NCBI GenBank assembly: GCA_964522405.1
Contig: CAZFTR010000001.1
Location: forward strand, 116,686-180,685
Origin: an uncultured Gammaproteobacteria bacterium
Lineage (GTDB): Bacteria > Patescibacteriota > Patescibacteriia > Magasanikbacterales > UBA922
DNA: 64,000 nucleotides
Direction: 5' to 3'
Within the stretch, counting starts at the first letter, position 1. Every line of letters starts with the position of its first letter. The notes beneath the pieces were generated by a model, which was not told where the DNA came from, ran no database searches, and worked only from the letters and a program-made list of their open reading frames with translations. Made by a program: the position numbers and the translations under genes. This document shows positions 1 to 55,638 of the stretch, one piece after another.

Positions 1-33
1 CCCGGCATATCCGGGGGTTTATTTTTGAATTTG
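1..33 (+). terminator. Rho-independent terminator hairpin (CCCGGCATATCCGGG + T-run) ending a gene upstream of the window
   Basis: Seen directly: 5-bp GC stem cccgg/ccggg, 5-nt loop, followed by gggtttattttt. Confidence 0.5.
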
Positions 34-39
34 GGCGTT

Positions 40-302
40 CGCAGAGCGAGCGCCCGGGTAACCAGTCCGCCATGAACGTCTCGCCCGGTCAGGGGTGAGG
101 AAGTTTCTAGGCGATCCGGGGCTGATGAGGAGTTGCTTGTGCGGGCTGTTTGCCCGACTTGCCGCTCCCCGAGTTGTCGGGGACGCTGAAGGCTGGGGTG
201 CCTTCGCGCACACAGATCGGCTGGCCGCCACCTCGCGGGAACAGTACGTCCCCAAATATGGTGCCGCCAGCAGTATCATCCACTACTACCAGAGAACTCA
301 TG
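40..302 (-). other. GC-rich transcribed segment of unknown function behind a consensus promoter; either a leaderless small ORF (about 64 aa from ATG at 301) or an ncRNA
   Basis: Sharp compositional switch from AT-rich to GC-rich. On the minus strand there is TTGACA (332-337), a 17-nt spacer, then TATACT (309-314). A 5'-terminal ATG sits about 7 nt after the -10. No long ORF in any frame. Confidence 0.35.
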
Positions 303-308
303 AGCAAA

Positions 309-337
309 AGTATACATAAAAAAATTCACTTTGTCAA
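309..337 (-). promoter_or_regulatory. Sigma70-like promoter (TTGACA-17-TATACT) reading into the GC-rich segment at 40-302
   Basis: Hexamers and spacing read directly from the sequence. Confidence 0.5.
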
Positions 338-410
338 TAATAGATCTTGATATTATTTAGTTATTTTGCTAAAGTAAGTACAGTTTTTAAGAATAAATTA
401 AAATGAAAAT

Positions 411-1604
411 ATGCAAATAAGTACTGATCAGGAGAAAATAAATGAATTATTGTCGCGCGGAGTAGAGAATATCTATCCAACCAAAGAATTTTTAGAAGAT
501 CGCCTTGAATCAGGAGAGCAATTGTCACTTTATACTGGTTATGATCCAACTGCACCAACTCTTCATATAGGTCATGGGATTACTCTTCTTAAACTTCGCC
601 AGTTCCAAGACCTAGGCCATAAGATAATCATGTTAATTGGGGATTTTACTGCCATGATAGGAGATCCTACTGACAAAGGCGCTGCCAGACAGAAACTAAC
701 CAAGGATCAAGTAATGGCTAATTGCCAAGAATATCAAAAACAAGCCAGTAGAATTTTGGACTTTGAAGGAGAAAATCCAGCAGAATTGCGCTACAATAGT
801 GAGTGGTTGGCTGATATGAGTTTTGCCGACGTGCTGGAGTTAACTTCTCATTTTACAGTACCTCGTTTACTAGAGCGCGATATGTTTCAAGAGAGAATAA
901 AGCAAGAAAAAACAATTTACTTGCATGAATTTATGTATCCAATTATGCAGGGATATGATTGTGTGGCTATGGATGTTGATGGGGAAGTGGGTGGTAATGA
1001 TCAAACTTTCAATATGCTTGCTGGAAGAACCCTAATGAAAGATCTCAAAGACAAAGAAAAATTTGTTTTAACTTCAAAACTTCTTACTGATAGTTCTGGA
1101 AAGAAAATGGGAAAAACTGAAGGAAATATGATTTCATTTTCAGATTCTCCCCAAGATGTTTTTGGAAAGGTTATGAGTTGGACAGATGAGATGATTGTTG
1201 TTGGGATGGAGCTTTGTACCAGAGTTTCAATGTCAGAAATAGAGGAAATTGAAAAGAAAATGAAAGCTGGAGAAAATCCTAGAGATTTTAAATTGCAGCT
1301 TGCATATCAGATTACTAAAACTTTTTTAGGTGAAGAAGCAGCAGAAAAAGGTAAAACACATTTTGAAAATGTTATCCAAAGCAGTGGTAAACCTGATCAA
1401 ATTCCAGAACTTAAACCAAGCTCAAATGACATTATCACCGTTCTTGTAGAAGCTGGTTTTGCTAGTAGTAAGGGTGATGCCAGAAGAGCGATTGATGGTG
1501 GAGGAGTAAAGATAAATGATCAGAAAATAGACAAACATGATGTGCAAGTCAATTCCGGAGACTTAATACAAAAAGGTAAAAGATTTTTTGTAAAAATCGC
1601 CTAG
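411..1604 (+). CDS. tyrS: Tyrosyl-tRNA synthetase
   Basis: Class I HIGH motif (TLHIGHG), KMSKS-like KMGKT, and a C-terminal S4-like RNA-binding tail (GGGVKINDQKI...). Confidence 0.9.
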   Translation: MQISTDQEKINELLSRGVENIYPTKEFLEDRLESGEQLSLYTGYDPTAPTLHIGHGITLLKLRQFQDLGHKIIMLIGDFTAMIGDPTDKGAARQKLTKDQVMANCQEYQKQASRILDFEGENPAELRYNSEWLADMSFADVLELTSHFTVPRLLERDMFQERIKQEKTIYLHEFMYPIMQGYDCVAMDVDGEVGGNDQTFNMLAGRTLMKDLKDKEKFVLTSKLLTDSSGKKMGKTEGNMISFSDSPQDVFGKVMSWTDEMIVVGMELCTRVSMSEIEEIEKKMKAGENPRDFKLQLAYQITKTFLGEEAAEKGKTHFENVIQSSGKPDQIPELKPSSNDIITVLVEAGFASSKGDARRAIDGGGVKINDQKIDKHDVQVNSGDLIQKGKRFFVKIA

Positions 1605-1608: not shown

Positions 1609-3336
1609 ATGATTGAAATTGTAAAAAAAGAAATACAAGAATTATTAAAATCAGCAGGAGTAACTGGAGAGCTTGAAATTACTTCCCCACCAAAAAAGGA
1701 AATGGGAGATTTTGCTTTTGGCTGCTTTGCTTTGTCAAAAGAGTATGGGCGACCTGAGGGTCATCCACTTTCAGGGAAAAACCCAGCAGAAATTGCTGCT
1801 GAACTTGCTAAAAAAATTGAGCCCAAGGGACTTATCAGTAGGGTTGAAGCTGTTGGGCCTTATATAAATTTTTATATAAATAGTAGTAAATTTGCAGAAG
1901 AATTATTCAAAGGATTGGATCAGACAACAGAAAAATATGGAAAATCAGACAAAAACGCAGGAAAAAAACTAATGTTTGAATTTGCCCATCCAAATACTCA
2001 CAAAGCATTTCATATTGGACATCTGCGAGGTGTCATAACCGGAGAGAGTATTATTAGAATTTTAGAAAATTCAGGATATCAAGTAGTTCGGACAAATTAT
2101 CAGGGAGATGTGGGTATGCATATAGCCAAATGTTTCTATGGTTTGAGTCAGATGCAAGATGAATATCAATCAGTAAAAGACTTAAGCTTAGAAGAAAAAG
2201 TTTCATTTTTGGGTAAAGCTTATGCACATGGTGGTCAAGCATTTGAGGACAGTGAAGACGCTAAGGCTGAAATTATTTCATACAATGATAAGATTTATTC
2301 GCGAGATTCTTCAATAGAGAAGATGTACAAGACAACCAGAGATTGGAGTTTGGAATATTTTGATAAAATTTACCAAAGATTGGGGACTCATTTCGATAGA
2401 TTGTATTTTGAATCAGAAGTTTATGAAAGGGGGCTTGAGCTGGTAGATCAATTTCTGGAAAAAGGAATTTTCAAAAAGAGTGAAGGCGCTATAATTTTTG
2501 AAGGAAGCAGGCATGGACTTCATGATCGAGTTTTTGTGAACAGCAAGGGATTTCCAACTTATGAGGGAAAAGAAATGGCACTTGCTGAAATGCAGCTTAG
2601 TGAATATAAAATAGACAAAGTAGTTCATCTAACTGGAAAAGAACAAGCTGATTATTTCAAAGTGGTTATAAAAGCAATAGAAAGTATTTTTCCTGATTCA
2701 GTAGGAAAAGAAGAACATATTACTTATGGATGGGTTAGACTAAAACATGGGAAAATGAGTTCAAGAACCGGCCAAGTGGTTCTAGGAGAGTGGCTACTCG
2801 ATGAAATTGAAAAAAAGATTGAAGAAACCATGAAAGATCGGCAAATAAAAGACAAAGAAGATTTGCTTAGAAAAATCGGAGTGGCTGCAACAAAATATTC
2901 AATGCTCAAAACCGGAGTTCAGAGCGATATTGCTTTTGATATAGATGAAACAGTTAGTACCACAGGAGATAGTGGTCCTTATCTCTTGTATATAATCACC
3001 AGAATCAAAAGTATTCTAAAAAAGGCAAATCTTGAATCTGATTTTGAATATCCACCTCAGCAAGAAATTAAAAAAGAAGAAAAACAATTATTACTTGATC
3101 TTGCCAAATTTCCAGAAATAGTCCTAGAATCTGCACAAGATTATGATCCATCACAAATTGCCAGGTATTTATTTGGATTGGCACAGGATTTTAATGCTTT
3201 TTATCAAGAATGTTCAGTGGTAAATGCAGAAACAGAAGAAATCAAAAAAGCTCGAGTCAAACTTATCCAAGCAGTGGAGATGATTATGGAGAGAGGTCTG
3301 TTCTTGCTTGGTATTGAGCATGTGGAGGAGATGTAG
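1609..3336 (+). CDS. argS: Arginyl-tRNA synthetase
   Basis: HIGH motif (FHIGHLRG), ArgRS-type MSSRTG motif, 575 aa with an anticodon-binding C-terminal region. Confidence 0.88.
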   Translation: MIEIVKKEIQELLKSAGVTGELEITSPPKKEMGDFAFGCFALSKEYGRPEGHPLSGKNPAEIAAELAKKIEPKGLISRVEAVGPYINFYINSSKFAEELFKGLDQTTEKYGKSDKNAGKKLMFEFAHPNTHKAFHIGHLRGVITGESIIRILENSGYQVVRTNYQGDVGMHIAKCFYGLSQMQDEYQSVKDLSLEEKVSFLGKAYAHGGQAFEDSEDAKAEIISYNDKIYSRDSSIEKMYKTTRDWSLEYFDKIYQRLGTHFDRLYFESEVYERGLELVDQFLEKGIFKKSEGAIIFEGSRHGLHDRVFVNSKGFPTYEGKEMALAEMQLSEYKIDKVVHLTGKEQADYFKVVIKAIESIFPDSVGKEEHITYGWVRLKHGKMSSRTGQVVLGEWLLDEIEKKIEETMKDRQIKDKEDLLRKIGVAATKYSMLKTGVQSDIAFDIDETVSTTGDSGPYLLYIITRIKSILKKANLESDFEYPPQQEIKKEEKQLLLDLAKFPEIVLESAQDYDPSQIARYLFGLAQDFNAFYQECSVVNAETEEIKKARVKLIQAVEMIMERGLFLLGIEHVEEM

Positions 3337-11958: not shown

Positions 11959-12041
11959 GCGCGAGTGGTGGAACGGTAGACACGCAGGCTTGAGGGGCCT
12001 GTGCTCGCAAGGGTGTGGAGGTTCAAATCCTCTCTCGCGCA
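11959..12041 (+). tRNA. tRNA-Leu (anticodon GAG), type II with a long variable arm
   Basis: Hand-folded: acceptor GCGCGAG/CTCGCGC, 3-bp D stem, anticodon stem CAGGC/GCCTG with loop TTGAGGG, long variable arm, T arm GGAGG-TTCAAAT-CCTCT, discriminator A. No encoded CCA. Confidence 0.8.
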
Positions 12042-12097
12042 CAAAAAAAGCAAGGTTTCTGGCCTTGTTTTATTATTTACGAGATAAATTGGGAGTC

Positions 12098-12136
12098 GGG
12101 CGACGCGTCTGAGGGGAACCTCAGACGCGTCGCCAC
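12098..12136. repeat. Perfect 16-bp GC-rich hairpin (GGCGACGCGTCTGAGG-GGAA-CCTCAGACGCGTCGCC) at the distal edge of island 2
   Basis: Read directly; marks the AT/GC boundary next to the tRNA-Leu. Confidence 0.6.
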
Positions 12137-12422
12137 ACTCGCCGTCCTTGCCTGCGCTGTTGCGCAGACCCGCGTGGTTGGGGCGCCGTGCACCCCTTCC
12201 TTGCCTGGCCGCCGAAGCGACCTGTCGGTGCCCGGTATGGTACCGGAGCACTCCTGGCGTCGAAGCGCTCATCGTGGTGTCTCGCCGTTGCGATTCACCG
12301 GAGTCGGCGCGCTGGCGTGCGCCATTCTCGAGATGACCCTTGCAGTCGGTGCCGTCAGCAGGTGACGGCGGTTCCGTTGCCTTGAGCGATCATCTGTGCC
12401 CCCGAAGAGGCCTTCGGCGTGG

Positions 12423-13286
12423 CTACCAGCTGAAGCAGAAGTCGCTGCTCGTCGCCGTGTAGCCCGCCTCGTCGCAGCAGCCCGCGGTCACCCCGTTCGG
12501 GTTGTCGCCGCCCGCGCCGTAGTCGGTGTTCACGTCCTCGTTGGTCGCCGCCGTCACGTTCTCCGCCGCCGCGGTGGCCGTCTGGTTCAGGTTGTGCGGG
12601 AAGTCGCCCGTCGCAGCCGTCGCCGTGTTGGTCATGCCCGAGTTGCCAGTCTCCACCGTCTCGCCGCCGCCCGCGCCGTAGTCGGTGTTGCCCAGGTTGG
12701 CCTTGTTCGCGTCGAAGTCCGCCGTACCGCCGGTGTCGTTCGCCGCGTTCGCGCCGTAGTCGGTGTTCACCACCATCTCGATCTGGGTCGCGCCGTAGTC
12801 CACCAGGAAGGGGATGTCCACAGCCAGCGTGGTGTCCACCCGCATCAGGATCGCGGTCGCGCCGTGCTCGCCGTAGTTGTCCAGCATGGTCGCCCAGATC
12901 GCCGTCGCGTTCTCCGTCGCTGCACCCGCGTTGTCGTGCATCCACTGCCAGCCGTCGAAGGCCACCGTCTCGCGCGCCGCGCCGTAGTCGGTGTTGGTGC
13001 CCATGATGAGGTGCGCCAGCTCGTCGTCGGTCAGGGCCGCCTCCCGGTTCATGGCGAACCAGTTGTTGGCCGCGTCCAGCAGAACCCGGTTGCTGTTGCC
13101 GTCGTCGACGAAGGTCAACAGCAGGTTGCCGTTGAAGTCCACGTCCACCGTCAGGGTGGTGTGGGCCGGGGCGTCGACCTGATCGATGGTCGGCGTGTCC
13201 GGCTCGGCAGCCGCGATGCTGGTGGGCAGCACCAGCAGAAGCAGGACCGCGAATGCGGCCGTCAGGAACGAAAGTCTCCGTCTCAT
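12423..13286 (-). CDS. Secreted protein with six copies of an N(T)DYGA motif; high-GC codon usage
   Basis: N-terminal signal peptide (MRRRLSFLTAAFAVLLLLVLPTSIAAAEP). Repeated GTNTDYGAA, NTDYGANA, NTDYGAGG (x2), VDYGAT, DNYGEHGA. C-terminal Cys cluster CCDEAGY...FCFSW. RBS GGAGG sits 10 nt before the ATG. Third codon positions are almost all G/C, unlike the flanking genes. Confidence 0.7.
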   Translation of the reverse strand: MRRRLSFLTAAFAVLLLLVLPTSIAAAEPDTPTIDQVDAPAHTTLTVDVDFNGNLLLTFVDDGNSNRVLLDAANNWFAMNREAALTDDELAHLIMGTNTDYGAARETVAFDGWQWMHDNAGAATENATAIWATMLDNYGEHGATAILMRVDTTLAVDIPFLVDYGATQIEMVVNTDYGANAANDTGGTADFDANKANLGNTDYGAGGGETVETGNSGMTNTATAATGDFPHNLNQTATAAAENVTAATNEDVNTDYGAGGDNPNGVTAGCCDEAGYTATSSDFCFSW

Positions 13287-13351
13287 CTTAGGAATTCCTC
13301 CACAAGGTCATCAACTTCCCGCGCCAGGTTTGGTTCGGGATTGCATTATCC

Positions 13352-13918: not shown

Positions 13919-13921
13919 ATG

Positions 13922-14318
13922 CCTTGTCCATTAAATAAGCCGAATTCTGTATCCTTGCAAGCAAGGTAATGATCATTTCTCTGGTTCCAGTGTTGCCACT
14001 AGAATCTAACGAGCTAACTTTTCGAATTCTGAAATTCAGAAAACGCTGCTCTTTCTCCAGGTAGGGTTTACCACCCTGACATAATGTCAGGTAGTATGGT
14101 AGCTTTTGACTCGAGATCAAAAACATCCATACTCTTTTCACCTTTCATTTTGCGAAGCAAAATTAGTATAGTCTCTGCGGCACTTTCCCGTCCATACTTG
14201 TCACCAAGCCGGAGGTGGGCGTTACCCACTACCATGACCCCGAAGAACTTCGGGGGGAGTTCGGACTTTCCTTCCAGCTCCCAAAAGGAGCCAGGCGATC
14301 ATTTATAATGAACAAGAC
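13922..14318 (-). ncRNA. rnpB: RNase P RNA (bacterial type)
   Basis: On the minus strand: GGAAGGAAAGTCCGAACTCC (CR-I/P4 5' strand), GGTGAAAAGAGTATGG, and ACAGAATTCGGCTTAT (CR-V/P4 3' strand). The 5' and 3' ends pair as P1 (GTCTTGTTCATTATAAAT with ATTTAATGGACAAG). Confidence 0.75.
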
Positions 14319-33219: not shown

Positions 33220-36200
33220 TTGCTGATTTTTATGTTTAAAAATCAAAATAGAAAATTAAAAACCTCATTGATAATACTGTTATCAAGTTTTGTTATTTTG
33301 GTTCCGGTTCTTGCCGGTTTACTAAAAATTGATCAGGCTCATGCTCAGGCCGCTGCAGCAGCAAAAGCAGCAGCAAAAGTTGCCACAGAAGCAGCATCAG
33401 GAGCAGCAAATTCAGCTCCGGCAGTGCCAACTCATGAGTTGAGTAGTGTTCCGAAGAAAATGCAAAAAATAGAAGATACTCTAGACGATACTTTTTTATC
33501 TACAGGACTTTCAGCTCTTATTAGTGGAGCTTCATATTTTTTAAACCGCCTTGCTTATGATGGTGCTAGGTGGATTGCTTCGGGTGGAAAAGGGCAGGGA
33601 GCACTTGCTTTTCAAGATGGATTTGGAGAGTACATCTTAAAAGTTGGAGGAGACAGTGTTGCTGATGCTGTTCAGCAGTTGGGAAATCCCTATGGATTAA
33701 ATCTCTGTAAACCCTCAAATTTAGATGTGCAGGTTTACCTGCAACTAGGATATAGAAAAGTTTATGATGGGCTTGGTGGAGAAGGTGGTCCTAAACCAAA
33801 ATGTTCATGGTCAGAGCTCAAGGATAAAATTGAATTTCAAACTTCAGGCGACGGAGTGCGATATTTTGGAGACACTATTGTCGAAGGTTTCCAAAACTCT
33901 TTTAGAGTTGAAGATAGTGATTTTGGAATTGCACTTGGAGCAGCTGGACAGCTAGACAGAATATATGCCCAAAAACAACAAGAAGCAGAGGGTGAACAAT
34001 TGGTTGGTGAAGGGTTTAAGCCACTTAAGAGTATGTTGTCTGGAAAAACTCTAACTCCGGCACAGATAATAAAAGAAGAAGCAAAATCTATTACTGCCAA
34101 ACATCAGGGTCAGATGACGGCTAATCAGATATCTGGAGTTTATGGCTCAGGAAGTATTGAGGCTCTGGTGGGTGCTGCTTCAATTTTTTTGACTACACTT
34201 ATATCTGATCTTTCCAAAAATATTTTAACTGATGGTTGGTTGACAGATCCTGGTTCAGGTGGAGGGGGTAGTTTATCTTCAAATACAGAAGTTGTAATCA
34301 ACGAATTTGCTTCAGCCATAAACCAAAATAGAAGAGCTGCAGAAAATGCCTTTAAATTTTTGTTTACAGCAGTTCCTGTTAAGCAGAGTTCCAGTTATCC
34401 GCTTTTGGATGATTTTGCCTCATGTCCTGATGATCCTGCTTTAAACCATCCTAAATTAACAAATTGTGTTATTGACCGAGCCTTTAGAGAAGCAATAGAT
34501 CGTGGAAACCAGGGGAGTAGTTTGACTATAAGAGAAGCCATGCTAAAGGAAAACGGAGAACTTCTCCACGGAGGTTGGCCTCTAATATCTCCTCTGAGAG
34601 AAGAAGAACATACAGAAGTAAAAGATTGTTATAGAAATGGATATTGCTACTCAAATATACAGAAATTGAGAAAAGCTCGTATCCTTCCTCTTGGTTTTGA
34701 GATCGCAGCCCTTCGTTCTGATCCGGATCAGCCCTGGACTCTTAAGCAGGTTGTAGATGGATTCAACGATTGTGCGGTTGATCCTGATTCTGGAAATATT
34801 GTCCAAAGTTCAAAAAAACCTTTTTGTCATTTGATTGATCCAAATTGGATTATACGCTTACCTGATCCGCGTTGTGAATCACTTGTTTATGGGCCAAATT
34901 TGATTTCCAATGCTGCGCCTACAAGACATAGTGAATGTGCTGATATTTCTACTTGTTTACTTGAAGATGAAAATGGCCAATGTATTGGTCAATATGGTTA
35001 TTGTCTAAAAGAAAAAAATGTCTGGAATATGCCGGGTCAATCTTGCCCTGCTCAGTTTAGCACTTGTGACACTTATACCAATACTAAGACTGGGAAAATA
35101 GAAAGCTTTTTATCAAGAACTGTAGACTATGATCAATGTACTAGTGATGCTGCTGGCTGTAGAGCATATAGTATTTACCAGGAAGACGGTGCATGGAGAA
35201 ATAGTAGTCAAACAGATGAGCTTTTAAAAACCAAAGGAGAGGCGCAAACCATGTATTTTGGAAAACTGGCAAGCCATGCAACTTGTCCTATTGATGTTGA
35301 TTTAAATGCTGATGGTTGTTCTGCATTTCTTCAGGTAACTTTTGACAGCGAAGTTGGTAATTATCAGAAAATAGCAGCTGCCACACCTCTTTATATGCAA
35401 AAGGCTCCAAATTATCTAGGTTGTTATGATACTGATTTATCTACCAAAGAAATTATAGATTGGCCAATTTCAGAAACTGATTTAACCCTTCTGACTGATA
35501 GACCTGAACAATGTGCAGACTATGCTCAGGTTTGTGTAGAAGATGAAGCAGGTTGTAGAAAATATCGCGCAGCTGAATCCGGAGTTCAAGACGTGGTTGG
35601 TATTGTGGGAGCAAATTCTTGTCCTGCTGAATGCGTAGGTTATGATACTTTCAAACAGGAAGAAAGTAATTTTGAACCTTCAATATTCCCAATGTATTTT
35701 ATTGCTGACGGTGTTGGGTCTAGAAGTTGCCCAGGACAGTATTCCAGCTGTTCAGAATTTACCAATATTGGCGCTGCCGGAGAAGGTGGAGAAGAGCTTG
35801 AGTATTTTGTTGATATTAAATATTGTGAAAAACCAGAAGAGGACAATGAAAAAACCTATTATTCTTGGGAAGGATCTGACAGTGCTGGATATGTTTTGAA
35901 AGTTCACAAAATGAAACAAATTGATCAAGAGGAATATACTTCTTATATTTTTAAAGTGGGTCAAGCAATTCAATTTAATCCTGGAGATAATTTAAGTTTT
36001 TATGAGATTGGATCACCGGCATATGCCAAAGATTCAGTAGAAAACTTAGAAGAATATTATCATGCTTGTAATGAGGAAAATTATAAGCAACTCATAAATG
36101 GAGAAAATCAGTTAGGAGATATAGACGAAGGTTGTGCTGCAATTTATGATAATGATGGAAATATTTATTATAGAATTTTATCAGAAACTGTAACTGTATC

Positions 36201-39200
36201 TGATCAATGTACACCTTATAGAAAAACTAATACTTATCTTGAATTGGATTCAGATTTAAATACTAGTGAACTTTGTTCATACAAATCAGGACTTTGGTCA
36301 GATGCTAATCTCAGTTGTGAGAGATGTTTCAATGGCGGAGAATATCTAGATGGGTCTTGTGTTTATTGGACTATTCCAAGTGAGTCTCTTTCATGTCAAG
36401 GTCCTGCAGGACAAGAAAATTTGTACAATGGTTGTCGAACTTATACTGGAAATGCAGTAAATGATCCTGTTCAGAAAATATTCTTTGATTTTGAACCTCA
36501 GCCATCTGATGATGATCCTGATGGTTTGAACAATGCCAAAGATGGTTGGTCTGTAGGAGAAATTACTCTTGACGCACAGCAAGTGGGACTTCATTCATTG
36601 CAAATTGATTCTGGTATTGTTGCTTTAGATGTGCCTGCTGAGATATTTACTGAGGATAAATGGTATGAATTAACTTTTTGGGCTAGAAGCGCTGTTGAAC
36701 AAAACCTAGTTGTGAAACTGATTCAGATTGCTCAGGATGTTGGCAATTTCAATTCTAATCCAAATATAGAAGGTGGGGAGATCCCAGTTAAAATAAATAC
36801 CAATTGGCAGGAATATAAATTAGGTCCGGTTCAATTTGCTGGAAGTACTGACTTGGAGGTGACGGCTATGTTCCAGGCAGTTTCTCTTGGGGTGAGTAGT
36901 GCTTATTCAATTGATAATGTTCGTATAGTGGAAGTTCCAAAATTTCACCGCATTAAAAATTCATGGCAACAAAAAGATACTGGTCCACTTGGTGAAGAGG
37001 TTGTTTTGGATGTTCCTTTGCTCTGTGACACTACACCTACTGATCCGTTCCCAGGTGAACATCTTGGCTGTAGTGCATATACGGACAAGACTGCAGATCC
37101 TGATCTGCCAGTCTATACTTCTGGATTTGAAAAATTGTGCAGAGTCAAAGCAGAAGGTTGTCGTCCTATAGTAGATACTTTTAATACAGTGAGCCATGAA
37201 GATCCGGGCAATCAAGATAATACCTTAACTCATGTATACAATGCATGGTGTGAGGAATTGGCAGAGGACATTTGTCAGGTTAAACACATTGATCAGGTAT
37301 TGGGAGAATGTCAGGTTGGAAAAGGTAAAAATGGTTGTTATATTCCAAAAATTGTCATTCCTGCCGGTGTGGAATTCAAAGATTTGTTAAATACCACAGA
37401 TTCAACAGTGGTTGTACCTGCTGATACAGAGGAAACTACACCAATTTATCTAACCTACAATACTGAGTATGCATGTTCTTCCAGCTTTATGGGTTGTAAA
37501 GCTGGTGCTCTTGAAGAGCAATCTCTACCAACAGAAAATCAAATTTCCTATGAGTTTAGTGAGCAAATGGTCTATGATAATCCGACTTTTTATGAACAAA
37601 CTCTTTGTAAATCAGAGGAGTTAGCTTGTGAAGAATACCGACATGGTAACAGTTTGGCTTACTTCAAAGATCCATATCTTACTGGTTCCAAACTGTGTAA
37701 ATATCGAGAAAATTTAGACTCAGGTGAGAACTATGGATGGTTTATGGAGGGTATAGGAAAATGTACTGGAACAGAAGATCTCTGTAGTTCAAGTGATGAT
37801 TGTTCTGAGGATGTTGCTTGTGATCTTGAGATAGATGTTCCTTGTTATGATAATTATCTGCAGGCTGGTGGAGAAAATGGCATTTGGTCAAATGATGCCT
37901 TATTTCATCCAATAACAGGAGAGAGTTTGTATGATGGTTTTGTTGGATTATGTGAATCACAATATAATAATTGTACTGAATATTTGGATCCACAGGATAG
38001 TTCTGGAGCTGATCCAGATGGTAAACCTTATTACGTTATAGCAGACAACCAATTGATTTCCGGTCAGTCTGAGTGTGCCGGACAGGTTAGTTTGCACGAG
38101 GGTTGTGTCTTGTTTGATCAAACAGACAACCCAAATAAGTTTTATGACAGTGAAGCAAGTTATAAGAAAAGCGCTGCTACAGATAATCCAAAATATCAAC
38201 CGGTTACACCAATTACCAGTGGTAATCTGGACGCAAATGTAGTATTGAAAGTTGAAGCTAATAGAAGCTGTAGCGAATGGTTGTCATGTAAAAATAGTAT
38301 CAAGATTACTGATGAAAATGGAATTCCAAAAAATGTTTGTAATGAATTCAAAGCTTGCAAGGAATCAGATGGTTCAGCGGGCTGTGCTAATTGGGCTGTT
38401 GATTCTGCTTACGAAACAGAGCCTTTGACTCAAGAGAAATATATTAAGCGTGATACATCCTGGTATGGAGAAGAATACACAGGATATTCACTGTTTGATA
38501 AATATCAGATTAGTAGTATTGCTTATGTTTCTGTAGAAGACGAGCCATTTTCATATATGGCTTACGAATTACATCCTGGAGTTGCTCCAAATAATAACTG
38601 TATAGGACAAGCTGCTTGGAGTAAATGTGGTTTTGATAATGGTGGTAGATGTCATAATGAAAAATGTATCTATACTATGAGCGGTCCTTTTTTACCTGAC
38701 TCTGATACAAAAGATGAAATCGTGGCAGAGTTAGAGGGCGGAACTTGTAAGGCTTTCCCAGAGGATAGTTCACCATATGATTTTAGTTTTGCAGAGCAAC
38801 CAACGCTTCATGAGACTGCCTATGATGACGGGCCTGATAGATATACTTTTGAAACCAAGAAAAAAGGATATGGTGGAGCAAATATTTGTCAGAGTGGAGA
38901 GAATTGCTCCTGTGAGTACAAGAAAATAGCTTATGGTAATGGTACAACTGATTACTTGAGCTATAGTGAAGATAAATATGCCAAAGGTGTTTGTACGGGA
39001 GGAGATTTTGCTCAGAAATCTTGTAGAATAAATTCTGACTGTGGTGCGGGTGGTTCTTGTAGTAGGATCACGAGTATTGAAACTCATATAGGTTTGAGGG
39101 GTCTGTGTATGGAATATGATTTGAGCAGACCAATAGACAAAGATAAGGATATTTACCCGTGTCTCACTTGGTTGCCGGTGGATACTGCGGCGACAGTTCT

Positions 39201-42200
39201 TGATCCATATAACAATGATCCAAAAGCAGGTTATCTACCACGGCTTGATGCCAGTGTTACTCTAGCCAATGGTTTTAAGAGTGAGTATGGACAAGTTTAT
39301 TGTAGCGAGGCATCAGGAAATGCCAAGGGTGCCTATGACATAGATGGATACAGAGAGATAACAAATGCAATTAACCAATCTACAGTTCCAAAATTTTCAG
39401 CCATATGTGATGGTAATCCAGATACTTTTGTTTGTAACAAGGACCTGTATAGTAATATGTTCAATGAGTATGGAGATTATATCTTTGATGAGAAAAAATG
39501 GGTAAGTATTACTGGTAATCCAGAGATAGCTTATGATGTTGGTGATGCAAATGCAGAATTTCCATTTACAGAAAAACTGCCTGTATTGCGTGATCCATTT
39601 AATGCTGGTTGGGGTGATAATTTTTCTTCTTTTAATACTTGGGAAGATGTGGAAGGATCCAAAACCACTATAATGCAAGGATTTTTTGAATGGCAAACTC
39701 GTCCACCGGCTACACCTGGTTCAGATGTGCTTACTGGCGCTAGTTTGTATCCTGATGATGACCAGAACAAGAATATATATAATTATCCGGATTTTGTCTA
39801 CTCCTTGGTTCAGCAATGGGCCTGGCATGGTGGTATGTATGGCAGAGGGTTGGCAGAAACCAAGGAATCCAAGAATATTATTTTGAATACCAAGAGTATA
39901 TCTGATCTGTGTGGAGATTTGATAGGTAAGGGGCAGCTATATACCGGTTGTGCAGACCTCTATAATTTTGCTGTAAATGCTCCAACTAAAACTCAGCAGG
40001 TTGAGTTATTAAAAGCTCTTCTTAACGCTCGAGTCAGTAGAATTTTAGCTGAAGATACCGAGGAAATTAAGCAGCAAGAAATAGTCAATCCAAATTCAAC
40101 TGTATTATTTACCTCAGCTCTTTATTTTAGGGATTACTTATATACTTCTTTGAAAAAAGTAGAAGAGATTGCGCCTGTAAAGGGTCTTGAAAGTAAAGGT
40201 CAGGATAAGAATAAATGGTATCTAGAAGATGAAGAGATGACCGAAGACTTGAATGGGGATGGTAAGGTTGATTATAAAGATATCACTGATCCTGAGTCTA
40301 TATTTTTGAGAGTAAGTTATGAACCGGTAGATTTTCATAGTTATACTCCGGGAACAATTGAAAAGGTCTTTGATTTTACAGGCGGCAGTAATAAAAGCAC
40401 AGATAAAGATGATCCAAATAATTATTTTTACAAGAGCTCAATTTGGGGGCATGCTACCAAGAAACTACGTGGTTATCATCCGGTCTTTTACAATTATGAA
40501 GCAGCAATAGAGGTTGTAGAAGATGAGATCAGTAAATTGCACTATGGACCAATGATGGCTCCAAATGGGATTGAAAGAGTTCTTACTATTGATTTTGATA
40601 CTCTTAATAATAGTCTGCCGCTTGAGTCAATCACAGCAAATGATGGGGTTTTGTACGATCTTAACTATTATTCAGAGGCTGTAAAAGGAGTTTATGTTTT
40701 TAAGGTAAGCCCAAGAACAGGTCCTAGAGCAGGTTGGTCACGATATATTATTATATCTATGGAAGACGGGGGATTTAGCGAAGATAAACCAGTGACTGAT
40801 TTGAGTCTTGATTTCTTTGTGGAGCTTCTTGACGAGTGGGCTGGAGATTCAAAATCCAAGTGGTCAAAGGGTGTGGATTGGATTGACGAGGATTTGGGAA
40901 ATAGATCACTTATTTGGGTCTGGGCTGATTTTGATGAGAAAGGTAATATGTCCGATGATTTCATAAAATCAAACTACCAAGCTTGGTATCAAAATACTAA
41001 AAGTATTTTTGTCTACAGTTCAGAGTTCAATGCCAAAGATGGAAAAACTCCTTTCTTGGCAGTTGTAGCAGAGACACATCCAAGATGTACAGAATTCCAG
41101 GTTGTTTATGATAGTGAAACCGAAGGGCTGGGCGGTTCAACTAACAAGGCTTGGACTGATAGAGTTTGGAATTATTCTAATTATCAACCGGGAACTACCT
41201 TTTTCTTTGGTAATAAATTAACTAAGCCGGCCTTTTCTCGACCTTTTGGTTCATTGCAATTAACTGCTGATTCTTTTGAAGGTACAAATGCATCAGGTTT
41301 GAGTTGGGAAGATGCCAGACGCAGATACACCTTTAGATCACCTGAGTTTGATGGTATACCTTATTCATGTGACGCAACAGCTCTAGAGTCAGAGCAGACC
41401 GCATTCAATCAAGGTAACTTTTTTAATGAAGGTTTGATGTATGATAATCCAGATTTTATTGGGCTTATAGAGTGGGGTGAACAAAAATGTATAGCGTCTT
41501 ATGGTGGAAATAATGAACTATATAACACCATGTCTTTTGTTGAGGCTGAAAATGGTATAGATATGCTATCTCAATTATTTAAAAAATCATTTACCTCTAT
41601 TAGAGCAAATGAACAGGGAGAAAATAAATTTGGTATTAAAGGAGCAATTGATCCACAGAATTCACTCTTTGTGAAGGAAGTTGGATTTGATGGTTCATCT
41701 ACTGCTGAGGCAGGTCTAATTCCTCCACAAATATATTCACTAAATCCAACCACTTGTTATGATTATACCGGTGGTAAAATTAATTGTACTATTGGAGAAG
41801 CAGATAATATAACCATAAACAGAAGAAATTTCATGTTAGAAGATTATGATGATGATGGATTTTATGATGAAGATCTAAATGGTGATGACTTGCCTGATCT
41901 GATAATTGCAGAAAATTCATTTACTGCTGTTGCTCATTTCTTTGCTTATGCTGATCATAACCGCATGCCTATTCGAAGAGTAATGGTTGATTGGGGAGAT
42001 GGAGATATTTCAAATCAAGATAGAAAGGGAATGTATAAGAATAGAAAACCATATTGTATTGGTGTTGGTAATGAGCAGAGTCCAGATATTGGAGAGTGTT
42101 CTCAGTCTGAGCAATTAACTTGTCTCAAAGATTCAGATTGTCCTTTGGCAGGAGAAACTTGTGATTTGAATGCAGCCAGGCATTTTGGAAATTCAGATAG

Positions 42201-42624
42201 AGCTTGTGTGCCGGAATATTTTGAATTTATGCATGGTTATTCTTGTTCGCAGTTTGATCTTCAATTGAGTGAGCTTGATAATGTTGATTTCTTGGAATAT
42301 ATGATTGAGTTTGATCAGCTTGATGAGTATCTGGGTAGGCCGGACGTAGAGCAAACTCTTAAGAATAGGGGTTATACTCCAGAAGTAAATACCAAGGTCT
42401 GTGTATTCCAGCCAAAAGTTCAGATATTGGATAATTGGGGGTGGTGTAATGGAACGTGTGATTATAAAGGTCCTGGAAGTGGGTGCTATTCCGAAGATGA
42501 GCTTAGTGGAGATTTTTGCGAAGTGAGTTCAGACAAGCCTTGGACAGGTTATGGTGAAGAGACAGTAGACAGTCTGGGTAATACGATTAGAAGTGGTTCA
42601 ATTATAGTAATTCCGACATCATAA
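33220..42624 (+). CDS. Giant (3134 aa) cysteine-rich predicted cell-surface protein
   Basis: Single uninterrupted 9.4-kb ORF with an N-terminal TM/signal (LIILLSSFVILVPVLAGLL), an Ala-rich linker, then a Cys- and Asp/Gly/Asn/Tyr-rich extracellular sequence with no catalytic motifs. Confidence 0.7.
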   Translation: MLIFMFKNQNRKLKTSLIILLSSFVILVPVLAGLLKIDQAHAQAAAAAKAAAKVATEAASGAANSAPAVPTHELSSVPKKMQKIEDTLDDTFLSTGLSALISGASYFLNRLAYDGARWIASGGKGQGALAFQDGFGEYILKVGGDSVADAVQQLGNPYGLNLCKPSNLDVQVYLQLGYRKVYDGLGGEGGPKPKCSWSELKDKIEFQTSGDGVRYFGDTIVEGFQNSFRVEDSDFGIALGAAGQLDRIYAQKQQEAEGEQLVGEGFKPLKSMLSGKTLTPAQIIKEEAKSITAKHQGQMTANQISGVYGSGSIEALVGAASIFLTTLISDLSKNILTDGWLTDPGSGGGGSLSSNTEVVINEFASAINQNRRAAENAFKFLFTAVPVKQSSSYPLLDDFASCPDDPALNHPKLTNCVIDRAFREAIDRGNQGSSLTIREAMLKENGELLHGGWPLISPLREEEHTEVKDCYRNGYCYSNIQKLRKARILPLGFEIAALRSDPDQPWTLKQVVDGFNDCAVDPDSGNIVQSSKKPFCHLIDPNWIIRLPDPRCESLVYGPNLISNAAPTRHSECADISTCLLEDENGQCIGQYGYCLKEKNVWNMPGQSCPAQFSTCDTYTNTKTGKIESFLSRTVDYDQCTSDAAGCRAYSIYQEDGAWRNSSQTDELLKTKGEAQTMYFGKLASHATCPIDVDLNADGCSAFLQVTFDSEVGNYQKIAAATPLYMQKAPNYLGCYDTDLSTKEIIDWPISETDLTLLTDRPEQCADYAQVCVEDEAGCRKYRAAESGVQDVVGIVGANSCPAECVGYDTFKQEESNFEPSIFPMYFIADGVGSRSCPGQYSSCSEFTNIGAAGEGGEELEYFVDIKYCEKPEEDNEKTYYSWEGSDSAGYVLKVHKMKQIDQEEYTSYIFKVGQAIQFNPGDNLSFYEIGSPAYAKDSVENLEEYYHACNEENYKQLINGENQLGDIDEGCAAIYDNDGNIYYRILSETVTVSDQCTPYRKTNTYLELDSDLNTSELCSYKSGLWSDANLSCERCFNGGEYLDGSCVYWTIPSESLSCQGPAGQENLYNGCRTYTGNAVNDPVQKIFFDFEPQPSDDDPDGLNNAKDGWSVGEITLDAQQVGLHSLQIDSGIVALDVPAEIFTEDKWYELTFWARSAVEQNLVVKLIQIAQDVGNFNSNPNIEGGEIPVKINTNWQEYKLGPVQFAGSTDLEVTAMFQAVSLGVSSAYSIDNVRIVEVPKFHRIKNSWQQKDTGPLGEEVVLDVPLLCDTTPTDPFPGEHLGCSAYTDKTADPDLPVYTSGFEKLCRVKAEGCRPIVDTFNTVSHEDPGNQDNTLTHVYNAWCEELAEDICQVKHIDQVLGECQVGKGKNGCYIPKIVIPAGVEFKDLLNTTDSTVVVPADTEETTPIYLTYNTEYACSSSFMGCKAGALEEQSLPTENQISYEFSEQMVYDNPTFYEQTLCKSEELACEEYRHGNSLAYFKDPYLTGSKLCKYRENLDSGENYGWFMEGIGKCTGTEDLCSSSDDCSEDVACDLEIDVPCYDNYLQAGGENGIWSNDALFHPITGESLYDGFVGLCESQYNNCTEYLDPQDSSGADPDGKPYYVIADNQLISGQSECAGQVSLHEGCVLFDQTDNPNKFYDSEASYKKSAATDNPKYQPVTPITSGNLDANVVLKVEANRSCSEWLSCKNSIKITDENGIPKNVCNEFKACKESDGSAGCANWAVDSAYETEPLTQEKYIKRDTSWYGEEYTGYSLFDKYQISSIAYVSVEDEPFSYMAYELHPGVAPNNNCIGQAAWSKCGFDNGGRCHNEKCIYTMSGPFLPDSDTKDEIVAELEGGTCKAFPEDSSPYDFSFAEQPTLHETAYDDGPDRYTFETKKKGYGGANICQSGENCSCEYKKIAYGNGTTDYLSYSEDKYAKGVCTGGDFAQKSCRINSDCGAGGSCSRITSIETHIGLRGLCMEYDLSRPIDKDKDIYPCLTWLPVDTAATVLDPYNNDPKAGYLPRLDASVTLANGFKSEYGQVYCSEASGNAKGAYDIDGYREITNAINQSTVPKFSAICDGNPDTFVCNKDLYSNMFNEYGDYIFDEKKWVSITGNPEIAYDVGDANAEFPFTEKLPVLRDPFNAGWGDNFSSFNTWEDVEGSKTTIMQGFFEWQTRPPATPGSDVLTGASLYPDDDQNKNIYNYPDFVYSLVQQWAWHGGMYGRGLAETKESKNIILNTKSISDLCGDLIGKGQLYTGCADLYNFAVNAPTKTQQVELLKALLNARVSRILAEDTEEIKQQEIVNPNSTVLFTSALYFRDYLYTSLKKVEEIAPVKGLESKGQDKNKWYLEDEEMTEDLNGDGKVDYKDITDPESIFLRVSYEPVDFHSYTPGTIEKVFDFTGGSNKSTDKDDPNNYFYKSSIWGHATKKLRGYHPVFYNYEAAIEVVEDEISKLHYGPMMAPNGIERVLTIDFDTLNNSLPLESITANDGVLYDLNYYSEAVKGVYVFKVSPRTGPRAGWSRYIIISMEDGGFSEDKPVTDLSLDFFVELLDEWAGDSKSKWSKGVDWIDEDLGNRSLIWVWADFDEKGNMSDDFIKSNYQAWYQNTKSIFVYSSEFNAKDGKTPFLAVVAETHPRCTEFQVVYDSETEGLGGSTNKAWTDRVWNYSNYQPGTTFFFGNKLTKPAFSRPFGSLQLTADSFEGTNASGLSWEDARRRYTFRSPEFDGIPYSCDATALESEQTAFNQGNFFNEGLMYDNPDFIGLIEWGEQKCIASYGGNNELYNTMSFVEAENGIDMLSQLFKKSFTSIRANEQGENKFGIKGAIDPQNSLFVKEVGFDGSSTAEAGLIPPQIYSLNPTTCYDYTGGKINCTIGEADNITINRRNFMLEDYDDDGFYDEDLNGDDLPDLIIAENSFTAVAHFFAYADHNRMPIRRVMVDWGDGDISNQDRKGMYKNRKPYCIGVGNEQSPDIGECSQSEQLTCLKDSDCPLAGETCDLNAARHFGNSDRACVPEYFEFMHGYSCSQFDLQLSELDNVDFLEYMIEFDQLDEYLGRPDVEQTLKNRGYTPEVNTKVCVFQPKVQILDNWGWCNGTCDYKGPGSGCYSEDELSGDFCEVSSDKPWTGYGEETVDSLGNTIRSGSIIVIPTS

Positions 42625-42666: not shown

Positions 42667-42697
42667 TTTAAAATATTTTTGATTTTTTTAATAAAAA

Positions 42698-42798
42698 GGG
42701 CCGTGCCGAAGCGCGTCCACGAGTTCACCGAAGTGAGACTTGTGGGCGCGCTTGGCTTGGCGTGCGACTGCTGAGAAAACGAGTTCGACTGCCGTGTA
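42698..42798 (-). other. Conserved GC-rich structured 3' element, copy A (nested about 60-nt helix with a CGAA tetraloop)
   Basis: gccgaagcgcg / ccacgag / tcac-CGAA-gtga / cttgtgg / cgcgcttggc nested pairing; about 75 nt identical to copy B at 43657-43761. Confidence 0.5.
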
Positions 42799-43326
42799 CT
42801 ACGGCTTGAGCTCCAGCGTGTAGTCGGGGCCGTCGTTGTCGAAGATCGTGATCTCGATTCCCTCGGAGGTCTTGATGACCTCGTAGTACCAGCCTGCCGG
42901 CTTGTCGAGGGGGAAGACCACAGCGGCCTCCTCGGGGTTGTCGTGCCAGGTGATCAGCGGACCGGTGATCATGGGCTTCTTGCCGAAGCCGATCATGGTC
43001 ACCTCACAGGTGTGACCACCGAACCCGTTCTCGATCATCTTGGTCGTGATCTCCTCGCCCCAGCCCTTGAAGTGCTTCCACTTGCCCGCGATGTTCGGGC
43101 AGATGTCCACCACGGGGATGGGCTCAGGGGCAGGCTCTTCTTCCGGGGTGGGCTCTTCAGGTCGCGGGATCGTGTCCGGCTCGACGAACCGGGGCTGTTG
43201 GGCTGTGTCTTCTGGGATCTGATCTCGGTTAGTGCTCCGAGGGTAGTTGGAGCTACAGCTGGTAAAAAGAAAAGCCACGAGCGTGGCCACGAGAATGAGG
43301 ATGTTTTTCCTCTCCATGGTGGCCAC
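42799..43326 (-). CDS. Lipoprotein paralog A with a conserved C-terminal domain; high-GC codons
   Basis: Lipobox LFTSC, Pro/Glu-rich linker, conserved block VVDICPNIAGKWKHFKGWGEEI...GFGGHTCEV...WHDNPE...GWYYEV.KTSEGIEIT. RBS AAGGAGGTG upstream. Confidence 0.7.
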   Translation of the reverse strand: MATMERKNILILVATLVAFLFTSCSSNYPRSTNRDQIPEDTAQQPRFVEPDTIPRPEEPTPEEEPAPEPIPVVDICPNIAGKWKHFKGWGEEITTKMIENGFGGHTCEVTMIGFGKKPMITGPLITWHDNPEEAAVVFPLDKPAGWYYEVIKTSEGIEITIFDNDGPDYTLELKP

Positions 43327-43500
43327 CTCCTTGCAGTAGCAGCCGGAGCTATAGTGGAATTTCCACTACACTTCTAGCTACCACTAGCAGGAGTTTTTTG
43401 TCGCACGCTATAGATCTTGCCTTTTGGCTAGGTTTAGCCAAGCAGACAAAGATATTGAAAAGAGCTTTTAGTCATCAAAGACTGATAAATATTAGACTAT
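43327..43500 (-). promoter_or_regulatory. Conserved 5' leader, copy A, with palindromes (TAGTGGAA-A-TTCCACTA; GCTAGTGGTAGC; TTGGCTAAACCTAGCCAA) and an upstream TTGACA-17-TCTAAT promoter-like site
   Basis: Nearly identical to 44278-44450. The palindromes were read directly; the promoter call is weaker (the -10 is non-consensus). Confidence 0.45.
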
Positions 43501-43616: not shown

Positions 43617-43656
43617 GTTTAAGTAATTTTTCACATTTTTTAAAAAATCATTTAAG

Positions 43657-43761
43657 GGGCCGTGCCGAAGCGCGTCCACGAGTTCACCGAAGTGAGACTT
43701 GTGGGCGCGCTTGGCTTGGCGTGCGACTGCGAGGAAAAAACGAGAGTTCGACTGCCGTGTA
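43657..43761 (-). other. Conserved GC-rich structured 3' element, copy B
   Basis: See copy A. Confidence 0.5.
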
Positions 43762-44277
43762 CTACGGCTTGAGCTCGGCCCAGATGTCGGGCTTGGCCTC
43801 GTTGTCGAATCGCGTGATCTCGATCCCCTCGGAGGTCTTGACGACCTCGTAGTACCAGCCCACCGGAGCCGGAATCGGGAAGACCACGGCGGTCTTCTCG
43901 GGGTTGTCGTGCCAGGTTGAAGCCGGACCGGGGAACATCGGCTTCTTGCCGAAGCCCGTGATGGTGACCTCGCAGGTGTGGCCACCGAACCCGTCCTCGA
44001 TCATCTCGGTCACGATCTCCTCACCCCAGCCCTTGAAGTTTTTGTACTTGCCCGCGATGTTCGGGCAGATGTCCACCACGGGGGTGGACTCTTCGGGGGC
44101 AGGATCCGCGGGCTTGTCGAGCCGCGGGGTCTCGACCGGCTCGACGAACCGGGGTTCCTGTGCGGCGTCTTCCGGGACGTAGTCCCGATCTCCCCCACGC
44201 TGAGGGGTGAAGCCGCAACCGGTGGAAAGCAAAGCCACGAGCGTGGCGACCATGAGCAGATTGCTCTTCTTCATCAT
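43762..44277 (-). CDS. Lipoprotein paralog B (about 65-70% identical to A); high-GC codons
   Basis: Lipobox LSTGC, Pro-rich linker, and the same conserved C-terminal domain as copy A. Confidence 0.7.
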   Translation of the reverse strand: MMKKSNLLMVATLVALLSTGCGFTPQRGGDRDYVPEDAAQEPRFVEPVETPRLDKPADPAPEESTPVVDICPNIAGKYKNFKGWGEEIVTEMIEDGFGGHTCEVTITGFGKKPMFPGPASTWHDNPEKTAVVFPIPAPVGWYYEVVKTSEGIEITRFDNEAKPDIWAELKP

Positions 44278-44450
44278 GGCGCCACCTCCTTGCAGTAGCA
44301 GCCGGAGCTATAGTGGAATTTCCACTACACTTCTAGCTACCACTAGCAGGAGTTTTTTGTCGCACGCTATAGATCTTGCCTTTTGGCTAGGTTTAGCCAA
44401 GCAGACAAAGATATTGAAAAGAGCTTTTAGTCATCAAAGACTACTATCCA
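44278..44450 (-). promoter_or_regulatory. Conserved 5' leader, copy B
   Basis: See copy A. Confidence 0.45.
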
Positions 44451-44713
44451 TTAAGTATTAGACCATGTTTTACCAGTTTTGTCAAGCTCTCTATAGTGAA
44501 AAGGTTAATAATTTGTGTATAAAAAGATCAGTTTTTGCTTAATTTAGCCTAGATTTTGATTTTAATAAAATTTAATCTAGGACTTGCATAGTTGCAAAAA
44601 AGCCTGTTTTTGCTAAAATAGAAGGACTTTTATAGAGTTGGTTTATAGTCAGTAATTAGTGAAAAATTTCCTAAACTACTAACTGTCAACTGTTAACTAC
44701 AAACTATTTAAAT

Positions 44714-53341: not shown

Positions 53342-54300
53342 GTATGGATGAGTACCAAGATAAAAAAATTTTTGTAACTTCTTATAAAAATCCTGATTTA
53401 GATGGTTTTGGTTCTGCATATGCTTATGCAGAATTTTTAAATTTACAAGGAATTGATGCTGTTCATGGAGTTTTTGGAACTCCTAGAAATGAAGTCGGAT
53501 TTGTTTTGAAAGAATTTGATATTAAATATGATCAAAAATCAGAGAATCTACTAGGAGACTATCCAGAAGTGGTTTTGGCTGATGCCAGTTCATTGCCGGG
53601 GTTGCCTTCGCAAATTAATCCCAAGAGTGTGGTGGAAATCATTGATCACAGAAAAGTACATGAGGCAGAAAATTTTCCAAATGCAAAGGCACAATTAGAG
53701 TTGGTAGGAGCTGCTGCTACACTTATTGCTGAGAAATTTTACCATGCAGGTATAGAGCCATCAAAAGAATCTGCAGTCTTATTATTTTTTGGTATTGTTT
53801 CAAATACTATTAATTTTAAAAACAATGTAACCACAGATCGAGATAGGAAGATAGGAGAGTGGTTAAAAGTTTTTTTTGAATTCAAAGAAGGTCAAATAGA
53901 TAGATTTTTTGAGAGTAAAGTAAAAATATCTGACTCAGTTGAGAAGAGTTTGGATTATAAAATCATAAGCTATGCTGTACCCTTTGATTTTGGAGGCAAT
54001 AGTATTGGTATAGCACAGCTTGAAATGGTTGATGTTGAAAATTTTATAAATTCAAATTTGGATGAAATTGAAAAAAGATTAGAGGAATTAAAAAAAGATC
54101 GTGATATAGATCTAGTATTTTTAACTTGTGTTGATCTTAAGGAATATTTTAATTTGTATGTTTGTTTTGAAGAAAAAATGAAAACCATTTTGTCTACTAC
54201 TCTTGGTTTGGAATTCACTGGGGCTCTAGCAAAAAAAGATGGAATTTTAATGAGAAAGGAAATTGCTCCAATTCTAAAAGAGTATTTAGAAAAAAATTAA
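53329..54300 (+). CDS. DHH-family phosphoesterase (NrnA-like)
   Basis: N-terminal DHH motifs (KIFVTSYKNPDLDGFGSAYAY ... LADAS ... IIDHRKVHE) and a C-terminal DHHA1-like region. Confidence 0.7.
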   Translation: MVVVGMDEYQDKKIFVTSYKNPDLDGFGSAYAYAEFLNLQGIDAVHGVFGTPRNEVGFVLKEFDIKYDQKSENLLGDYPEVVLADASSLPGLPSQINPKSVVEIIDHRKVHEAENFPNAKAQLELVGAAATLIAEKFYHAGIEPSKESAVLLFFGIVSNTINFKNNVTTDRDRKIGEWLKVFFEFKEGQIDRFFESKVKISDSVEKSLDYKIISYAVPFDFGGNSIGIAQLEMVDVENFINSNLDEIEKRLEELKKDRDIDLVFLTCVDLKEYFNLYVCFEEKMKTILSTTLGLEFTGALAKKDGILMRKEIAPILKEYLEKN

Positions 54301-55265: not shown

Positions 55266-55419
55266 GATATTTTTTAAGTTTTTGTAATTATATTTGAAAT
55301 TTTATGTTTCGTCAAAGGGGTTGTTTTTTTATCTTTTTTATGTTAATATTTTTTTGCATGAAAGAGAACGTTAGCGTTTCTCAGAGGACCATAACCGGCT
55401 AAAGAGAGCTAAGACGGAT

Positions 55420-55600
55420 TTTTTTCAGCATCATGCTGGGGGAGGTCACTTGTGACCATGATTTTCGACGCAAAGCGTGGGTCGAAGAAATAAGGGTTGC
55501 GCCGACCAGAACCGGAACAAGGGGGAACGGGGGTTGCCACCGGATATGAAATCTCGACTTGCAAAAGTCGTAGACGAACAACCGAGTGGTCACCCCCAAG
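55420..55600 (-). ncRNA. Candidate structured GC-rich ncRNA or cis-regulatory leader (unclassified)
   Basis: About 180 nt, GC-rich within an AT-rich locus. The minus-strand RNA begins GGGGGUGACCACUCGG and folds back on CCGGUGGCAACCCCC. Further hairpins are UUCGACCCACGC..GCGUCGAA, GGUCACAAGUGACC and CAGCAUGAUGCUG. There is no credible ORF. It lies between the tRNA-Leu terminator and the phosphoesterase promoter region. Confidence 0.4.
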
Positions 55601-55602
55601 AC

Positions 55603-55630: not shown

Positions 55631-55638
55631 TTTATTAG

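Follow-up and report, generated by a model that had tools for sequence, protein, structure and literature searches.

A GC-rich islet upstream of tyrS in a Magasanikbacteria genome as a possible orphan small-RNA gene on acquired DNA

Analysis of a 64,000-nt stretch of bacterial DNA (hereafter the window) revealed a short GC-rich islet, island 1, at its start, which we read, with a probability of about 0.45, as an orphan non-coding transcript of ~305 nt on compositionally foreign DNA. A near-consensus sigma-70 promoter (337–309) would start minus-strand transcription at about position 301, RNA polymerase would cross a 263-nt non-coding body of 64% GC, and transcription would stop at a bidirectional intrinsic terminator shared with a convergent histidine-kinase–like gene. 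The product would be an RNA of ~305 nt folded as a chain of short G-C hairpins. The foreign composition and the position of the islet at the end of a 3.8-kb insertion lead us to read it as an orphan small-RNA gene that may have been brought in on acquired DNA.

The islet body occupies positions 33–295 on the minus strand (263 nt) and has 63.9% GC, compared with ~30–40% across nearly all of the 64 kb (~35% GC genome); it contains neither 3-nt periodicity nor a recognizable homologue. The GC-rich block and its lack of long ORFs, both reported in the preliminary description, were confirmed, since the longest ORF inside it has 86 aa (19–279, minus strand). The block fits exactly between the promoter and the terminator, which themselves have the AT-rich composition of the host. 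A GC-rich 10-bp hairpin, GGGCGCUCGC-UCU-GCGAACGCCC in the predicted transcript (33–55, minus strand), forms the 3′ edge of the body, appears in both the MFE and the centroid folds, and is followed by an A-rich linker between hairpin and terminator. Logan contigs assembled from two separate runs, SRR8146440 and SRR8146441, carry the islet without a single base difference, and the two Logan contigs and the NCBI contig agreed in sequence and junctions; the presence of the same islet in independent assemblies argues against assembly noise. Longer contigs, L001 included, were found through exact look-up of the TyrS protein, and both extend leftwards past the window start. Composition alone is no pointer to an RNA gene, since in this genome both foreign DNA and structured RNA are high in GC.

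The promoter, TTGACA-17-TATACT on the minus strand (337–309), matches the sigma-70 consensus at 11 of 12 positions and points into the block, as had been described; it is not perfect, as had also been stated, because the −10 hexamer TATACT matches at five of six positions. Only ~10% of the sequence is intergenic here, and the 6.3 kb of intergenic DNA contains six promoter matches of at least 11/12, versus 0.48 ± 0.59 in composition-preserving shuffles, which corresponds to an enrichment of ~12-fold and an expected false fraction of roughly 8%. In the whole window, 11 such matches were found versus about four in local shuffles. The excess of intergenic matches over the shuffle expectation makes it unlikely that the islet promoter arose by chance. 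The five other intergenic matches lie immediately upstream of RNase P RNA (14354–14326), immediately upstream of a tRNA (55778–55750; 12/12), 6 nt before the ATG of a 333-aa leaderless-type gene at 27348, 22 nt before the gene at 54297–55265, and in front of a small hairpin-plus-terminator unit (59238–59330); three of these five drive non-coding RNAs. Judged from these positions, the promoter class is largely functional. Since the class is enriched and drives RNase P RNA, a tRNA and leaderless genes, transcription of the islet from about 301 to the terminator is likely. Promoter geometry places the predicted start at 299–303 on the minus strand, 6–9 nt downstream of the −10 element, and the A of an ATG at 301 is the likeliest start purine.

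The hairpin plus T-run reported at the other end of the block is a real terminator, but its description needed correction in that it is bidirectional and truncated by the window edge. Within the window it covers positions 1–26 on both strands (10-pair stem, seven G-C pairs). The full hairpin, AAACCCCCGG-CATAT-CCGGGGGTTT, lies at 6668–6692 of L001, which corresponds to window positions −5 to 20, and was called on both strands when the full contig was scanned. Its T-run for the plus strand is located at 18–26, and the U-run for the minus strand falls immediately outside the left edge of the window. The terminator closes both the convergent histidine-kinase–like gene (plus strand) and the predicted islet transcript (minus strand); with a start at ~301, the transcript would measure about 305 nt. 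The arrangement of an 11/12 promoter with a 17-nt spacer upstream, a GC-rich body and a minus-strand intrinsic terminator downstream supports a separate minus-strand transcription unit. A weak candidate for a divergent tyrS promoter, TTGATA-17-TAAAGT with a TG extension (347–375, plus strand; 9/12 matches), is situated on the other side, and the −35 hexamers of the two promoters are only 9 bp apart.

Comparison with RNA families gave no assignment. The 4227 covariance models of Rfam 15, applied to the whole window at the gathering threshold, detected nothing at 1–420, and at E ≤ 10 the only match on either strand of 1–420 was that of the terminator hairpin to the anti-hemB 3′ end (E = 1), so that the cmscan comparison proposed earlier yielded no family on either strand for the islet itself. 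ARAGORN detected no tmRNA on L001 and no tRNA in the islet. Both the MFE and the centroid structures consist of a chain of six or seven short local G-C hairpins, with a folding z-score of −2.5 to −2.9 that is nearly equal on both strands; one to four of 100–200 shuffles folded as stably. This value lies inside the spread of same-length GC-rich coding windows (+0.9 to −4.7) and is far weaker than those of RNase P RNA (−5.5) and of the non-coding tail of island 2 (−7.5). The modelled structure is thus compatible with an RNA gene yet not distinctive. When the islet was compared with the 46 translation-start regions in the window by RNAduplex, the best energy was within the shuffle range. Searches by DNA similarity provided no homologues for a covariation comparison. 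A structured ncRNA, which had been offered as the alternative to a peptide, is the better, though unproven, reading in view of the missing coding signal, despite the lack of an Rfam match and a z-score of −2.8 that GC-rich coding DNA also reaches; sequence evidence therefore favors RNA over peptide mainly by exclusion.

Among known systems, the islet resembles sigma-70/Rho-independent sRNA genes (enterobacterial trans-acting sRNAs, 6S RNA) in that it is a stand-alone intergenic unit that shows no coding signal, has a near-consensus promoter, ends in a G-C hairpin with a U-run and would yield an RNA of a few hundred nt; it differs from them in having no curated family and no detected target complementarity. 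6S RNA, which binds the RNA polymerase holoenzyme and serves as template for pRNA synthesis, has ~160–200 nt and forms one long irregular hairpin with a 5′/3′ closing stem and a large central bubble, whereas the islet folds as a local hairpin chain without an end-to-end rod or central bubble; with ~305 nt predicted and no Rfam 6S match, a 6S-like RNA was rejected. tmRNA, SRP RNA and RNase P RNA, recognizable by a tRNA-like domain with a tag ORF, the SRP domain IV motif and the P4 core, respectively, were likewise rejected, as Rfam matched none of them and ARAGORN found no tmRNA; the RNase P RNA of this genome is located at 13920–14315, and its 45% GC is far below the 64% of the islet. The T-box leader, which carries a specifier loop and a conserved T-box/antiterminator and is transcribed into the synthetase gene on the same strand, is the classic regulator of tyrS in Firmicutes, and the islet is similarly a structured-looking element of ~270 nt directly upstream of tyrS; however, its only strong promoter faces away from tyrS, the candidate tyrS promoter (347–375) lies downstream of the block, the plus-strand terminator precedes the block, and RF00230 was not matched at E ≤ 10, so that this candidate was discarded. 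A hammerhead was suggested by CUGAUGAG on the plus strand at ~122–129, but the motif lacks the GAAA that must follow stem II, and no hammerhead model matched. A retron msr-msd RNA, which would adjoin a reverse-transcriptase gene, was excluded since no RT domain was present among the neighbours, namely a histidine-kinase–like ATPase, two HTH paralogues, valS, tyrS and argS. GC-content screens for ncRNAs in AT-rich hyperthermophiles were reportedly carried out by Klein, Misulovin and Eddy in 2002. The islet resembles the GC-rich RNA genes of AT-rich genomes in forming a sharp GC peak without an ORF signal; in contrast to those screens, the other GC peaks here are protein genes (GC3 0.84–0.95) and there is no sign of thermophily. 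Because the other peaks are protein-coding, high GC in this genome does not by itself indicate a structured RNA.

Searches on the DNA level gave no homologue of the islet. Blastn against phages gave no match and against plasmids only matches at E ~0.8, and no exact 24–25-mer of the islet was present in viral contigs. One 22-mer had three matches in JGI metagenomes, all in contigs of 67–69% GC and none extending past the 22-mer, which we attribute to chance. Nhmmer against all fetched loci (75 related) and the rest of the window found no homologue, and local alignments with islands 2–4 of the window and with the GC-rich islets of two other Magasanikbacteria (L006 and L007) scored at shuffle level. 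The literature on Magasanikbacteria or CPR in connection with GC-rich islands, ncRNA or leaderless genes yielded nothing relevant.

The gene next to the islet is tyrS (tyrosine–tRNA ligase; 411–1604, plus strand), as had been assumed, and it is followed by argS (1609–3336). TyrS places the genome in Candidatus Magasanikbacteria, a CPR lineage; the nearest TyrS sequences show 75% identity (best species representative) and 76% identity (best of 5.8 billion proteins), and the genome has no close relative in which the tyrS upstream region could be compared as had been proposed. The order valS–tyrS–argS is widespread among related CPR loci, and in the nearest genomes (L003, L077 and L078) tyrS follows valS directly or with one small gene between. 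The valS–tyrS gap here measures 3.76 kb and contains three genes, with the islet at the right-hand end. These lineage-specific genes lie left of the window (L001 3330–6648). Two of them encode paralogous HTH proteins (317 and 331 aa, 26% identical) with weak sigma-70/ECF and HTH_23 matches, and the third, which ends 25 nt before window position 1, encodes a histidine-kinase ATP-binding domain within a soluble protein of 447 aa. Tblastn of the three proteins against more than 70 related loci gave no match, PADLOC gave marginal matches only, and a PDB sequence search was uninformative beyond the histidine-kinase ATP-binding domain. Since valS and tyrS are adjacent or nearly so in the relatives and the inserted proteins have no match there, the islet belongs to, or abuts, a lineage-specific insertion.

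In its composition (64% versus ~35% GC), its absence from relatives at the conserved valS–tyrS–argS junction and its lack of a recognizable function, the islet resembles the horizontally acquired islets and ORFan inserts of CPR genomes. It differs from these in that its promoter and terminator are host-like and that the analysis revealed no donor, mobility gene, terminal repeat or duplicated target site: mobility-gene families were absent among the neighbours in Pfam, PADLOC, PHROG and NCBIfam; no flanking repeats were seen around the islet by eye; and scans of phages, plasmids, viral contigs and metagenomes gave no matching donor DNA.

The window contains four sharply bounded units of 60–70% GC, each with a host-style promoter and terminator, and all four lie on the minus strand, compared with 8 of 43 native ORFs. 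The genes in these islands carry a GGAGG Shine-Dalgarno (SD) sequence, whereas native genes mostly lack one. The islands other than island 1 (12085–13330, and the tandem pair 42695–43500 and 43654–44460) are protein-coding and have SD sites, signal peptides and AT-rich promoters and terminators. Island 2 (12085–13330, minus strand; 65–70% GC) directly follows a tRNA gene (11959–12041). Its minus-strand ORF (12423–13286) encodes a 287-aa secreted protein with a GC3 of 0.95, NTDYGA repeats and the SD sequence GGAGG, which had no match in Pfam, PHROG or NCBIfam, and its GC-rich non-coding tail (12085–12422; 338 nt) has a folding z-score of −7.1 to −7.5 and a perfect 16-bp hairpin. The tandem cassettes, with a period of ~960, contain paralogous lipoprotein genes on the minus strand (ORFs 42799–43326 and 43762–44277; GC3 0.84–0.87), and a search of 5.8 billion proteins found no homologue of the lipoprotein tested besides its paralogue. 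The two copies have diverged to a dS of ~0.48 with a dN/dS of ~0.45, and high GC3 is kept in both despite this old divergence. Their AT-richer 5′ leader of ~173 nt is 97% identical between the copies and has a folding z-score of −5.7 to −5.9, which suggests a conserved cis-regulatory leader or gene conversion. Immediately upstream of the cassettes lies a giant ORF of 3134 aa (33220–42624), whose predicted product has many Cys-rich stretches and begins with a signal or membrane segment.

Other Magasanikbacteria also carry sharply bounded GC-rich inserts. The one in L006 (1110–1600; 34% GC genome) contains a 64-aa CxxC ORF with a perfect TTGACA-17-TATAAT promoter and a GC-rich terminator hairpin, and the one in L007 (2700–3200) contains an apparently truncated fragment of a metallo-beta-lactamase–fold gene with a HEHHDH motif. 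Intergenic units without an Rfam assignment were also observed elsewhere in the window. The ~250 nt at 55358–55604 (51% GC), between the gene at 54297–55265 and the tRNA at 55639–55720, had no Rfam match, showed a folding z-score of −4.0 on the plus strand and end at a bidirectional terminator (55605–55635); this region is a candidate for an unannotated RNA. Between two minus-strand genes, the region 59053–59330 holds two small plus-strand units, neither of them significant in Rfam: in the first, TTGACA-17-TACTAT precedes a hairpin RNA of ~75 nt and its terminator (z = −5.4); in the second, TAGACA-16-TATAAT precedes a 59-nt hairpin of 56% GC (59238–59296; z = −3.1) and a terminator.

The preliminary description had also considered that the transcript is a leaderless mRNA for a Gly/Pro-rich peptide. 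Leaderless small-protein genes are common in Actinobacteria and other groups, and the islet shares with them a start codon at the predicted transcription start and a host that is poor in SD sequences and has leaderless-type genes. The placement of the ATG held: it lies at 301–299, 7 nt after the −10 hexamer, so that a start on its A, as judged from promoter geometry, is plausible, and it opens a frame of 64 codons plus stop (107–301, minus strand; coding part 301–110, TAG at 109–107), whose predicted product, MSSLVVVDDTAGGTIFGDVLFPR..., contains 10 Gly and 7 Pro. Most native genes lack an SD sequence and at least two of them (starts 27348 and 55800) have TATAAT, 6 nt and ATG in succession, so the leaderless idea fits the expression grammar of the genome. 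The 64-aa CxxC ORF of the L006 islet, which has a perfect promoter, shows a similarly weak GC3 bias (0.60/0.48/0.66). However, the frame resembles leaderless genes in neither codon bias, conservation nor predicted fold. Its GC1/2/3 values are 0.66/0.55/0.65, a GC3 minus GC2 of only 0.09 (permutation p = 0.16), and 3-nt periodicity across the whole islet had p = 0.29, versus p < 0.0005 in three GC-rich genes elsewhere in the window; with neither local nor global periodicity, a pseudogene remnant was rejected as well. Under a codon model trained on the other GC-rich genes of the window, the frame scored −0.47 bit per codon, compared with +0.6 to +0.9 for real GC-rich genes, and all six frames of the islet were negative. 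By our base-composition estimate, an open frame of 64 codons arises by chance in ~15% of cases in DNA of 62% GC. Conservation of the frame, proposed as a check, was not found: a concatenated six-frame query had no match among 5.8 billion proteins, the islet frames matched no family in Pfam, PHROGs or NCBIfam, and of the 1.84 billion representatives scanned with phmmer only two matched the 64-aa frame; we discounted both because the same ~30-residue stretch was aligned to internal repeats of the targets, with single alignments of only 24–28 bits. Missing homologues are weak evidence against a peptide, since the other GC-rich islands also contain an orphan, namely the lipoprotein gene that was tested; codon statistics are the main argument. 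AlphaFold2 predicted no secondary structure for the product (pLDDT 48), and it has no signal peptide or membrane segment, unlike other island proteins. A leaderless 64-aa micro-protein is therefore unlikely.

A stronger competitor, though less likely than the small-RNA gene, is that the islet is inert or decaying foreign DNA, a high-GC non-coding scrap captured with or beside the 3.8-kb insertion; its promoter may fire, but on this account the result would be a functionless pervasive transcript stopped by the bidirectional terminator of the neighbour. The islet is missing at this site in every relative examined, has no homologue, family or target, and folds no more stably than some GC-rich coding DNA, and the genome and its relatives hold other sharply bounded GC-rich inserts, including the L007 gene fragment; these observations favor this reading. 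What speaks against it is that the near-consensus promoter comes from a class with ~12-fold enrichment and a false fraction of roughly 8%, and that the block exactly fills the interval between promoter and terminator. CPR genomes are moreover compact, with ~10% intergenic DNA here, and the AT bias of the genome should erode a block of 64% GC, unless the block arrived recently or is under selection. The sharp compositional boundaries and the fact that the organism is known from one study only could also point to high-GC reads chimerically joined into an AT-rich contig during assembly or binning; this is highly improbable given the agreement of the two-run Logan contigs with the NCBI contig, boundaries that coincide with promoter and terminator rather than with read-length breakpoints, and other GC-rich islands whose genes are intact, have promoters of their own and SD sites, and encode signal peptides.

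Taken alone, island 1 is a modest and unproven orphan outside curated families, for which every specific family considered failed a defining feature. It is conceivable, at long odds, that Magasanikbacteria maintain a class of high-GC expression cassettes in which island 1 is the RNA-only member; on this equally speculative account, the class would comprise stand-alone lagging-strand units with a consensus-type promoter, an AT-rich terminator and a body of 60–70% GC. Such a class is possible because the lipoprotein tested has no homologue beyond its paralogue among 5.8 billion proteins and L006 contains a similar cassette with a perfect promoter; and since the lipoprotein copies keep a GC3 of ~0.85 at a dS of ~0.5, high GC may be under active maintenance instead of being left over from a recent transfer. 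If this were true, the islet would encode a new structured RNA in which selection favors GC-rich stability and which may come from a high-GC host or imitate one. The presence of four units of 60–70% GC in a symbiont-type genome of 35% GC raises the questions of where they came from and why they have not eroded. To our knowledge, very little is known of the non-coding repertoire of CPR lineages; the putative islet RNA lies outside the curated RNA families, as do several other intergenic units in the window. If the transcript is real and functional, it would add an unclassified RNA gene to a CPR lineage.
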